Positions 50,646 through 53,329 of a DNA stretch of 64,000 nucleotides are shown here, piece after piece. Each line of letters begins with the position of its first letter. The stretch's first letter is position 1. The notes beneath the pieces were generated by a model. The model saw nothing but the letters and a program-made list of their open reading frames with translations. It made no database searches and had not been told where the DNA came from. The position numbers and the translations under genes are program-made. The DNA lies in contig JBHLRP010000010.1 in assembly GCA_048882485.1 (NCBI GenBank), forward strand, positions 1 to 64,000. The letters are read 5' to 3'. The stretch is from Candidatus Thorarchaeota archaeon. Its GTDB lineage: Archaea > Asgardarchaeota > Thorarchaeia > Thorarchaeales > Thorarchaeaceae.

Positions 50646-51038
50646 GTGAGTGCCAAATTCGCCAAAGAGGTGAATGTATTCTCTAGTGCCAACCAGGTAT
50701 TCCAAGAGACTCACGAACCTTTCGTCAAGCCTTCTTTTGAGAGCCTCGCTGCATCATTCTTGTCTCTAGCAGATATGAGAATGAGTGAGACTCAGAAATA
50801 CGTTCTGAGAGTGAGTGCCCAGCTGTTAAGGCATAATGATCTGACAGTGACGGCATTAGCAGACCAGGTATCACGCAGGGCTTCAGTTGCCTATAGCACT
50901 GTGAAATGGAATCTGCGATCCTTAATGGACTTGGGTTTGCTATCTGGCGGTGATATGGAAAACAGAGGACAGCTGGCAAAGCTTACAGCAACTGCTGTAA
51001 TGTTGGCTAACTTCCTCGAAGAACAGTATTACAAGTGA
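50646..51038 (+). CDS. Winged-helix DNA-binding protein
   Basis: TVTALADQVS...AYSTVKWNLRSLMDLGLL...AKLT motif. Confidence 0.7.
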   Translation: MSAKFAKEVNVFSSANQVFQETHEPFVKPSFESLAASFLSLADMRMSETQKYVLRVSAQLLRHNDLTVTALADQVSRRASVAYSTVKWNLRSLMDLGLLSGGDMENRGQLAKLTATAVMLANFLEEQYYK

Positions 51039-51087
51039 GAGGCGGGATCACCTTCGAGAGTAATCCCCTCTCATTCTCTTTTTTTCC
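51034..51087. terminator. Stem-loop plus T-tract between convergent genes
   Basis: tgagagg-c-gggat...atccc-ctctca inverted repeat followed by ttctcttttttt. Confidence 0.55.
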
Positions 51088-51106
51088 ACTGCTTGCCGCG
51101 GGTTGC

Positions 51107-51158
51107 AACCCGGCCTCCATCGACACCGCATTACTTTAGGTGTAGATATCATCGGATT
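51107..51158 (-). promoter_or_regulatory. Eukaryote-type SECIS element overlapping the stop codon
   Basis: mRNA reads AAUCCG AUGA UAUCUACACCU AAA GUAAUGC GGUGUCGAUG GA GGC CGGGUU. Helix I is AAUCCG/CGGGUU, the core is AUGA/GA, helix II is UAUCUACACC/GGUGUCGAUG, and the apical AAA lies 11 nt after AUGA. Confidence 0.85.
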
Positions 51159-51952
51159 TTCTTGTTGAAGAAGCCCCATGCCATATTGATGAGGCTTCGA
51201 ACCTCGTCAAGACCGTGCGCGGAGGCGAGGACAAGATCAACCGAACTGCTATCACCCGGCTTCAAATCACCTAGGTTGCACTGCAGACCGGTGGCAATGT
51301 CCTTCGGTCCCGCTTCGGGATTGTTCTTTAGGTCGCGCTTTTCTGATTCTACCTTGAGCTTCAGTGGAGATGATATCTCCCAGCCATCAGGACTCGGCTG
51401 TGAGGAAATGGCTACAGAAACCTGGCTTTCATCATAGGCAATGACGATTCCGTTCTTTTCGTCATAGGTGCCCATGTCGTCTTTGTAGCTCATTGGACCT
51501 CCTATATCGAAGTCGAAGATGCTGTAGACCTTGAGGTCTTGGACCATGCTGGAACTGACGTTCGTTGTCGTATGCCGGAGTAGCAAGACAGGTTTGTTGT
51601 AGCTCCACAAATCAAGTGTGAAGTTGACCACAGGTTCCTCGAATTCTTGAGGTGCGTGGCTCATCACTAGTCTTAGGCTACCTTTCTTCTGCTTTCGCTC
51701 CACGACAGCGATGGTGTCAGCTTCCGTCGACTCGACGACAGCTACAGTCCCATCTGCGACATAAGACGCCCAGATACCGCCTTTATAGTCAGCAGGATTC
51801 TTGAGCAGTAGTCGTTCCTTTCCGGTGGGATCTATCAGTCCGAGGCGTCTGATGTAGAAACCGATGCGACCTACGCCTCATGACGCACATTCAACAGCAT
51901 AACTGATGTCGAGCCTTGGACGTCGGTTACCGGTTTCAAAGATCTCGGACAT
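51149..51952 (-). CDS. Putative novel selenoprotein (267 aa, CxxU with Sec25) with a beta-supersandwich-like C-terminal domain
   Basis: ATG at 51952 gives MSEIFETGNRRPRLDISYAVECAS-TGA(51880-51878)-GVGRIGFYIRRL..., continuous with the 184-aa ORF 51149..51703. A SECIS lies at the 3' end. Confidence 0.85.
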
Positions 51953-52045
51953 GACCGACCACGTTCCTATGCTGATTTCTCCGAGTTTCCTAGAGTTAAA
52001 AGCTCTACCATACATAAGCCGCACAACTACGCCTGGGTCACAAAG

Positions 52046-53329
52046 TTGATAAAGTGCACTCGGGAAACCCTTTCGAATCTCAGGTGGATTTCAATGACGA
52101 CCCTCACAATCGATCAGCTTCAGAAATGGTATCGAAAGCGTCTAAGCAATATGTCCAAGGATTTCACGAAAAAGGCAGAAAAGAGCTACAGGATTGTAGA
52201 GCGGTCTTTGAAAGATATTCAGGATATATCTCGAAATCTGAAGGAACCAGGTGAAGATGATGACCCTGATTCCACAGGGATTGCTACGAGATTCGCAATG
52301 AAGATTGAAGACATTACAAATGATTTCTATGTTGGTAAGGACATAACATATGAAAGCACCGAGTCACTTCAAGAAGGGATTCGAAGCTTCATCCAAGAAC
52401 TCTGGGGTGCCGGCGCTCGTTGGATTAGACGGATGGACAAGAAGCACAAGAGTACTATCAAGCAGCTAGATGTCAGCATGAAAGAACTTATGTCCGAGAT
52501 GAACAAGATACAGAAGCTCCTTTACGAATTCAGCTGGCTGAAGGATTTAGAGCGTATAGGTGGTAGAATCCAGACTCTGCAAGATCTTGGCTTTAGTAAA
52601 GAGGTATACGAAGAGCAAATTCGTACAACTCGAGCAAAGATCGAAACAGCAATGACAGAATATGACTCAGCAAAGAAAGCCTATGAGGAATTCACTGAAA
52701 CTTCAAATGTAGCTGATTTGCTGAACATCGACTCTGAAGCAGACCATATTGCGAGTCTATTGAGAATGAAACTGAATCCCCTCAAGAAGCAGGTGAAGAA
52801 GTTCTTTCAACATGATACTGGAGTAAGAGTAGGTTCGACAGGGCAGAAGGCATTGAACGACTACTTCGAGAACCCCTATGATGCCATCGTGGAAGAGCCA
52901 ATCGGCTATCCTGGATTATTGGAGGGATTAGCCGGTTTGAGAGAGGCAATTGAGAAAGGCAAGCTTCCTATGAAGGACCGGCTGGCAAGAAGGGCTATTG
53001 AGGAGGTCCAAGCCATCAGTAGTGGATCTCTGAGTGAGCTTCAGGAGAAAGCAAAGGAACTGGAAGAGAAACGTCATGCTTTTGCTGATTCTGATGTATA
53101 CACGAAGAGTGCAAAACTGCAAGAGGAATTGAATGAAGCTGAGAGGAACTTGGAGTATCATCGAAGTGACATGCTAAGGATTAGAGATGATATCAATCGT
53201 GAGATTGATCGTGCAAAGGACTTCAAGGTGAGGATTGAATCCGAGATTCTAGAGTCCTTTGAGGAAAAGGTAAAGCTTCAGATAGAGATTTCTCTTGAGC
53301 CCCTTCTCGAGAAGACCAAAACTGCATAG
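52046..53329 (+). CDS. Coiled-coil protein of unknown function
   Basis: Long charged helical sequence. The start is probably ATG at 52094. Confidence 0.7.
   Translation: MIKCTRETLSNLRWISMTTLTIDQLQKWYRKRLSNMSKDFTKKAEKSYRIVERSLKDIQDISRNLKEPGEDDDPDSTGIATRFAMKIEDITNDFYVGKDITYESTESLQEGIRSFIQELWGAGARWIRRMDKKHKSTIKQLDVSMKELMSEMNKIQKLLYEFSWLKDLERIGGRIQTLQDLGFSKEVYEEQIRTTRAKIETAMTEYDSAKKAYEEFTETSNVADLLNIDSEADHIASLLRMKLNPLKKQVKKFFQHDTGVRVGSTGQKALNDYFENPYDAIVEEPIGYPGLLEGLAGLREAIEKGKLPMKDRLARRAIEEVQAISSGSLSELQEKAKELEEKRHAFADSDVYTKSAKLQEELNEAERNLEYHRSDMLRIRDDINREIDRAKDFKVRIESEILESFEEKVKLQIEISLEPLLEKTKTA

Follow-up and report, generated by a model that had tools for sequence, protein, structure and literature searches.

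The minus strand of the window, by which we mean the whole analysed stretch of 64,000 nucleotides from Candidatus Thorarchaeota archaeon, very probably carries, judging from sequence comparison, a working SECIS element of Asgard type and eukaryote-like form, situated at the 3' end of a selenoprotein gene that is conserved in Thorarchaeia, and the stop codon UGA of this gene lies inside the AUGA core of the element. The observation made in an earlier note on this locus was borne out and its interpretation was upheld in part; its view of the lower part of the element had to be revised. The coordinates of the gene and of the element are compiled in Table 1.

The genome is a Thorarchaeial MAG of 3.96 Mb in 157 contigs with a completeness of 90.5%. 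A tRNA-Sec was detected at 59.3 bits, over the Rfam cut-off, and was called by ARAGORN as tRNA-SeC with the anticodon TCA, and matches to SelB/EFSec (277 bits, over the cut-off) and SepSecS (374 bits) were found beside it on contig C88. Since tRNA-Sec, SelB, and SepSecS were all present, the organism decodes UGA as selenocysteine (Sec). SelB/EFSec, SepSecS, and tRNA-Sec form a compact cluster on one strand within 3.5 kb (C88:5155-8632).

When UGA was translated as Sec, the gene encoded a protein of 267 residues with a CxxU motif made up of C22 and U25. A six-frame search revealed the family in 69 of 87 Thorarchaeial genomes, representing 15 of 17 genera; the homology extended across residues 1-267, spanning the UGA, and nearly all matches had exactly one in-frame TGA. 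Among the 61 orthologous loci extracted, the codon-25 column consisted of 60 TGA and a single TGT (Cys), in line with the earlier claim that a Sec UGA stands at codon 25 of the same mRNA. In the 24 codons upstream of the UGA, the non-majority fractions at codon positions 1, 2, and 3 were 0.22, 0.11, and 0.47, as compared with 0.22, 0.12, and 0.40 downstream, a pattern by which the upstream variation is judged to be of the coding type. The locus thus displayed a conserved in-frame UGA, Cys in one homologue, and coding constraint on both sides, as expected of a selenoprotein gene.

All public gene calls of the family begin 3' of the UGA and cover 59-90% of the query, and the public protein matches bear the name Thorarchaeota, with some labelled Hermodarchaeota and Promethearchaeota. 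Gene starts of this kind would be in agreement with the codon-25 UGA being a true stop; the gene proper would then be an ORF of 184 codons beginning at GTG 51703, with a 3' structure that has nothing to do with selenocysteine. These starts are, however, what table-11 gene callers are expected to produce, because these would truncate any selenoprotein likewise. Moreover, the homology across the UGA in 15 genera, the third-position variability upstream of the UGA, which matches that downstream, and the orthologue with Cys at codon 25 all argue against a true stop, which we therefore regard as highly improbable.

The 267-residue protein gave no match in Pfam or NCBIfam. An AlphaFold (AF2) model built from the 61-sequence alignment (pLDDT 92.5, pTM 0.91) predicted an all-beta supersandwich with a C-terminal helix, and Foldseek detected likeness to the N-terminal domains of GH94 phosphorylases, GH116, and GH15 enzymes and to GalM-type mutarotase (TM 0.55-0.69, E about 1e-8 to 1e-9); the protein thus resembles a galactose-mutarotase-like beta supersandwich standing alone. 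The invariant residues of the family comprise a DFDxGGPxSYKDD stretch and several further Asp residues, and C22-x-x-U25 is located in an N-terminal hairpin of lower confidence (pLDDT 73, residues 21-30). A published survey, based on homology to known families, listed seven Asgard selenoprotein families (Huang, Xiao and Zhang, 2024; PMC11227280). The family described here is absent from these seven, and it appears to be an unreported selenoprotein family.

At the 3' end of the gene, the motif AUGA-N11-AAA-N17-GA was read directly from the mRNA strand, exactly as the earlier note had quoted it, with the UGA of the core serving as the stop codon. Helix II of the window sequence comprises eight standard pairs and one U.C mismatch (51144/51122); with the inclusion of U51148.G51118 it is paired at nine of ten positions, which reproduces the earlier count with its single mismatch. 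A candidate 2-bp ministem within the apical loop (G51134-C51128 and U51133.G51129) occupies columns that are 91% paired and nearly invariant, and these columns consequently provide no evidence for or against it. The AUGA on the 5' side and the GA on the 3' side would constitute a kink-turn core surmounted by helix II and the A-rich apical loop, in which the 3' GA would make tandem sheared G.A/A.G pairs with G51150 and A51149. In the unconstrained minimum-energy fold of the single window sequence helix II did not form; folding of this kind is uninformative for a kink-turn RNA.

Table 1. Positions of the selenoprotein gene and of the SECIS features within the window (numbering of the forward strand; letters as in the mRNA)
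Feature	Position	Strand	Remarks
Selenoprotein coding sequence, 267 codons	51952-51152	minus	ATG 51952 to CGA 51154-51152; TGA translated as U
Sec codon UGA, codon 25	51880-51878	minus	motif E-C-A-S-U-G; TGA in 60/61 orthologues
AAUCCG (codons K-I-R)	51158-51153	minus	5' strand of helix I in the earlier note; pairing with 51112-51107 doubtful
Covariance-model match to SECIS core	51157-51111	minus	52.9 bits, E 5.6e-9, whole genome
AUGA-N11-AAA-N17-GA	51152-51116	minus	read directly in the mRNA
SECIS core AUGA	51152-51149	minus	its UGA (51151-51149) is the stop codon
Terminal UGA, codon 268	51151-51149	minus	stop
Helix II, 5' arm	51147-51139	minus	compensatory changes in 8/8 modelled pairs
Apical loop U-AAA-G-UAAUGC	51138-51128	minus	11 nt, UAAAGUAAUGC
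Loop AAA	51137-51135	minus	11 nt 3' of AUGA
Next in-frame stop UAA, codon 274	51133-51131	minus	inside the apical loop
Helix II, 3' arm	51127-51119	minus	partner of 51147-51139
3' core GA	51117-51116	minus	17 nt 3' of AAA
Hairpin III CGGGU-UGCA-ACCCG	51112-51099	minus	directly 3' of the core

The element was kept at the same position in all 61 orthologues examined, in which the gene ends on AUGA in 56 cases, on GUGA in four, and on a UAA in the apical loop in one. Thus 60 of 61 end at (A/G)UGA, which upholds the claims that the core UGA is the gene's own stop and that the last codons are dual-coded. Invariant positions were the core U, G, and A, the middle adenine of the loop (A40), and the A and G following the 3' G, and the flanking loop adenines (A39/A41) and the G of the 3' GA were at least 90% conserved. 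RNAalifold applied to a sequence-only alignment predicted helix II with compensatory changes in all eight pairs. Helix II cells were paired in 93.3% of cases, as against 64.5% after shuffling and about 32% when the partner was slid; 172 cells showed double-sided changes, and none of 500 shuffles reached the observed value, although such tests overstate significance because the orthologues are related. Both the covariation and the stop/SECIS overlap proposed as checks were accordingly found in the orthologues, and the element, announced as a eukaryote-type SECIS, can be described as one of Asgard type whose helix II is kept with covariation.

Two orthologues departed from this pattern. In L054 (G005:C21), a shift of the C-terminal frame places AUGA out of frame and the UAA within the apical GUAAAG serves as the stop, whereby the coding sequence enters the element further, through its whole 5' half. 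L017 (G035:C61), the sole Cys (TGT) orthologue, retains AUGA and hairpin III, with a shortened helix II, an altered loop, and no long-range helix I, and scores 32 bits with R1, the covariance model of the SECIS core that we built from orthologues of the 267-residue family; four Sec-containing orthologues score lower than this. The state of the L017 element would fit decay after the loss of Sec, which as a single case is only suggestive, and SECIS loss after Sec-to-Cys replacement is not clear-cut, because this orthologue retains a weakened element. The in-frame UAA described as a backup stop is present in the window as claimed, but it is restricted to a few close relatives. As the next in-frame stop differs among orthologues, the backup UAA was rejected as a meaningful feature.

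When both strands of positions 50800-52100 were subjected to cmscan, with permissive filter settings and E values of up to 10 admitted, none of the Rfam SECIS models matched. To read the Rfam miss as a refutation was rejected, since accepted Asgard SECIS elements are likewise missed by SECISearch3 or eukaryotic covariance models in both papers on them (Mariotti et al., 2016; PMC4989117; Huang et al., 2024; PMC11227280). When R1 was run over the 3.96-Mb genome, only two strong matches were obtained, namely the window site and a site at C65:15680-15726 (47.9 bits); taken with the conservation among the orthologues, this speaks against a chance occurrence of the motif. The C65 site follows, at a distance of about 60 nt, a 69-codon ORF that stops with UAG and carries UGA at codon 57, and the element recognised by R1 therefore occurs in the genome only behind ORFs with an in-frame UGA. 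Orthologues of the C65 ORF were present in three genomes of the same genus, each with one in-frame TGA and with the element at 41-51 bits; they had been left out of model building. Judging from its sequence, the 69-codon ORF is a candidate small membrane-anchored selenoprotein. Its locus outside the window (C65:15415-15726; L070/L071) encodes a membrane anchor, a Thr-rich linker, and the motif APPCTTGUGPP.

It could be considered that the conserved structure is another kind of 3'-end element, such as an L7Ae-bound kink-turn for mRNA stability or a termination signal, with Sec being directed otherwise. The lack of an Rfam SECIS match and the recognisable copy kept by the Cys orthologue are compatible with such an element. 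The restriction of the structure to ORFs with an in-frame UGA in this genome speaks against it, and the signature of AUGA, A-rich loop, and GA is common to the accepted vhuU SECIS of the same genome and to published Asgard SECIS elements. We consequently consider this explanation very improbable and interpret the structure as a SECIS.

The SECIS elements of Lokiarchaeota were described as eukaryote-like on account of their AUGA, their A-rich loop, and their GA; UGA is the stop codon of many selenoprotein genes in Loki, overlap between SECIS and coding sequence can occur, and the proximity has been argued to preclude recoding of the overlapped UGA (Mariotti et al., 2016; PMC4989117). With the Lokiarchaeota VhuU.1 SECIS of that study, the window element shares the AUGA core, the A-rich apical loop, and a GA or AA after the stem, as well as the failure of eukaryotic covariance models and the absence of SBP2. 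It differs in belonging to another class (Thorarchaeia) and to an unreported host gene family, in its apical loop, which reads (G)UAAAG...GCAG instead of AAAAA, and in that most of its orthologues have a hairpin after GA and a long-range lower helix inside the coding sequence, a layout not described in the accessible literature.

Rules for eSECIS-like elements of types I and II in Asgard archaea were given by Huang, Xiao and Zhang (2024; PMC11227280), who also reported that the stop/AUGA overlap is frequent in Lokiarchaeia and that the loop of the Thorarchaeial frhA element starts with GUAAA, a loop start shared by the window element. The type I core GA...[G/A]A was found as GA 51150-51149 and GA 51117-51116, the upper stem (7-15 bp with at most two mismatches) as nine positions with one U.C, and the apical loop (8-20 nt starting with unpaired adenines) as 11 nt; as in that type, the gene at whose 3' end the element lies encodes a selenoprotein, and the genome possesses Sec machinery. 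The model of these authors consists of core, upper stem, and loop; the lower stem is treated only in notes on particular families, and a three-way junction does not appear.

Eukaryotic SECIS elements (Rfam SECIS_1) have in common with the window element (A/G)UGA...AA...GA, a spacing of about 11 nt between core and adenines, a predicted kink-turn core, and action at a distance from the 3' end. In contrast to them, helix II in the window is shorter and the element sits on the stop codon, not in a long 3' UTR, and the eukaryotic SECIS-binding protein SBP2 is absent from Asgard archaea. The euryarchaeal SECIS of Methanococcales likewise lies at the 3' end and acts over hundreds of nucleotides, but its core differs in having a GAA_A bulge and GC-rich stems, the AUGA/GA quartet occurring only in the VhuD/HdrA elements. 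In Methanococcus, distances of 520-679 nt were shown to be functional, and the SECIS may directly adjoin the coding sequence (Peiter et al., 2022). The distance from the Sec codon to AUGA in the window, measured as about 727 nt where about 730 nt had been claimed, was taken to be consistent with these working distances.

As for the part of the element below the core, a hairpin directly after GA(G), termed hairpin III, was placed in 61 of 61 orthologues (three of them apparently wrongly), and its loop usually follows the pattern NAGCA. When the orthologues were realigned with the three-helix model R2, 78.8% of the hairpin III cells were paired and five of six pairs showed double-sided changes, as against slid controls near 40% for all helices; the numbers of covarying cells obtained from alignment A4 are fitted to the model. 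The strand 3' of hairpin III pairs, in most genera, with codons -8 to -3, that is, within the coding sequence, and examples of this long-range lower helix are GACAAGAAG / CUUCUGUC, ACCAAGAAG / CUUCUUGGU, CCAAGAGAA / UUCUCUUGG, GCUGCGAAG / CUUCUCAGC, and UGCCGAGAG / CUCUCGGCA. The mean energy of the long-range duplex was -11.9 kcal/mol for the true strands, compared with -5.6 kcal/mol for shuffled strands and -7.8 kcal/mol for strands swapped between species, and 2000 permutations yielded no set of equally low energy.

The clade of the window (L003-L009) behaved differently. Its long-range duplex was no better than chance (-4.5 kcal/mol versus -6.2 kcal/mol shuffled), and the clade consensus fold over -90 to +110 comprised helix II and hairpin III with no lower helix. 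No long-range helix is thus detectable in the clade, where the core, helix II, and the hairpin are all that remains. The same consensus fold contains, in the coding sequence just upstream of the element (about 51170-51198, minus strand), a 10-bp hairpin GAAGCCUCAU / AUGGGGCUUC with pair probabilities of at least 0.9, which is conserved only among close relatives.

The earlier note had assigned AAUCCG/CGGGUU as helix I. The complementarity is real, whereas its conservation is not, CGGGUU being the 5' arm of the conserved hairpin III. It is nevertheless conceivable that in the window's clade this local helix forms the lower stem of a plain two-helix SECIS and that hairpin III is absent in the active state. 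When helix II was imposed on the window sequence and its core kept unpaired, the most favourable fold contained AAUCCG/CGGGUU (-24.0 kcal/mol, versus -22.8 kcal/mol with hairpin III); some replacement is plausible in a clade that lost the long-range helix I, and the published frhA model also has a short local lower stem. On the other hand, the partner strand CGGGUU belongs to a hairpin conserved with covariation in 61 orthologues, and the consensus fold of six clade members chooses hairpin III. Substitutions within the clade point in the same direction: those in CGGGUU weaken the outer pairs of AAUCCG/CGGGUU, while the A-to-G change of L004, located in the opposite arm, preserves the pairing of hairpin III through a U.G pair. 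Furthermore, pairing of the AAUCCG/CGGGUU type is nonexistent outside the CCG codon context. Taken together, we consider the local helix possible but rather doubtful, and prefer hairpin III as the structure that follows the core in the window as well.

Hairpin III is placed on the strand termed non-bulged in kink-turn nomenclature, and a k-junction is a kink-turn that has a third helix inserted in its non-bulged strand, facing the loop (PMC4005666; PMC10573300). As in the k-junction of the TPP riboswitch (Wang et al., 2014; PMC4005666), hairpin III is flanked by helix II and helix I's 3' strand, directly after the 3' GA(G); the analogy is one of topology only. The bulged-strand loop is longer here (about 5-6 nt) and the function is unrelated. 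With respect to the kink-turn itself, the G/A positions are conserved, and most orthologues, though not those of the window's clade, support the lower helix. By this analogy, most genera would possess a three-way junction of k-junction-like topology.

The element behind the C65 ORF also has the three-way layout, and a further case was provided by vhuU. A looser pattern scan of the whole genome returned 43 matches versus 11 on control strands; among what it recovered was a second SECIS type in four copies, one of which belongs to vhuU. The vhuU gene, situated directly after the hydrogenase large-subunit gene, encodes the small selenopeptide of [NiFeSe] hydrogenase with the motif DCULSCGAH; it ends GGG-UGA, and this terminal UGA lies in the AUGA of the vhuU SECIS, an overlap seen in every vhuU relative recovered with the GG-AUGA anchor by which these relatives were sought. 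The vhuU elements have a hairpin after GAC and then a strand pairing with the last codons, the mean energy of this long-range duplex being -20.6 kcal/mol, versus -12.2 kcal/mol for shuffled strands, with one of 2000 permutations as low. The three-way layout was consequently seen in three unrelated families, i.e., the 267-residue family, the 69-residue membrane-anchored candidate, and vhuU.

The last ~20 codons of vhuU together with the SECIS exist in four copies in the genome (C46:18500-24500, L068; C8:77554-77659), only one of which follows a real vhuU. A gene for an 806-residue protein, in which a metzincin-like motif (HEAGHALGLRH) occurs, is flanked by two partial copies, the first about 100 nt upstream of the start of the gene and the second about 30 nt after its stop. 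These copies may represent the footprint of a duplication or insertion, or a mobile module composed of a 3' end plus SECIS.

Whether the SECIS of Thorarchaeia in general is three-way and k-junction-like, not two-helix, with a long-range lower helix that uses the last 5-8 codons, is in our estimation an evenly balanced question. Such a three-way architecture across a family may be new. No paper linking SECIS elements with the k-junction was found in a literature search that did not extend to Liu et al. (2018) on Thorarchaeota SECIS. The location of the stop codon inside AUGA, by comparison, is real but already published (Mariotti et al., 2016; Huang et al., 2024).

With regard to the mode of action, the element would direct Sec insertion at the UGA of codon 25, about 727 nt upstream. 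From the established geometry of the ribosome, when the terminal UGA occupies the A site, the next 9-12 nt are within the mRNA channel. These nucleotides would include the 5' arm of helix II, and the last codons, which provide the 5' strand of the lower helix where one is present, would also lie in the ribosome. A terminating ribosome would thereby hold the 5' half of the SECIS, and the element would be unfolded at the terminal UGA. The terminal UGA would then be read as stop and codon 25 as Sec because the arriving ribosome has unfolded the SECIS, which is the same argument as that of Mariotti et al. (2016). Each terminating ribosome would have to dismantle the element. Any pacing effect of the kind that had been proposed on this ground would probably be small unless termination is slow, with about 10-12 of the 267 codons affected.

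Beyond the element, between the convergent genes (about 51035-51075 of the window), a conserved GC-rich hairpin follows an A-run, which reads as a T-run on the plus strand. It lies at the 3' end of the convergent gene for a 130-residue winged-helix-like protein (50646-51038, plus strand), and the region may be a shared or bidirectional termination region.

The SECIS elements of Asgard archaea are a proposed link between archaeal and eukaryotic selenocysteine decoding. The 61-species alignment with its rich covariation offers a far better basis for covariance models than the pattern rules used so far, and model R1 found a further candidate selenoprotein beyond the reach of homology searches. 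There is evidence that published surveys that rely on homology to known families miss Asgard-specific selenoproteins. The k-junction proposal, with a lower helix in the coding sequence, bears on which protein recognises the SECIS and on how one mRNA reads UGA both as Sec and as stop. If the three-way reading is true, every finishing ribosome would dismantle the whole element, and the SECIS would be a translation-coupled switch and possibly an intermediate form in the evolution from the archaeal to the eukaryotic SECIS; the families of the 267-residue protein and the 69-residue ORF would then be new Asgard-specific selenoproteins.
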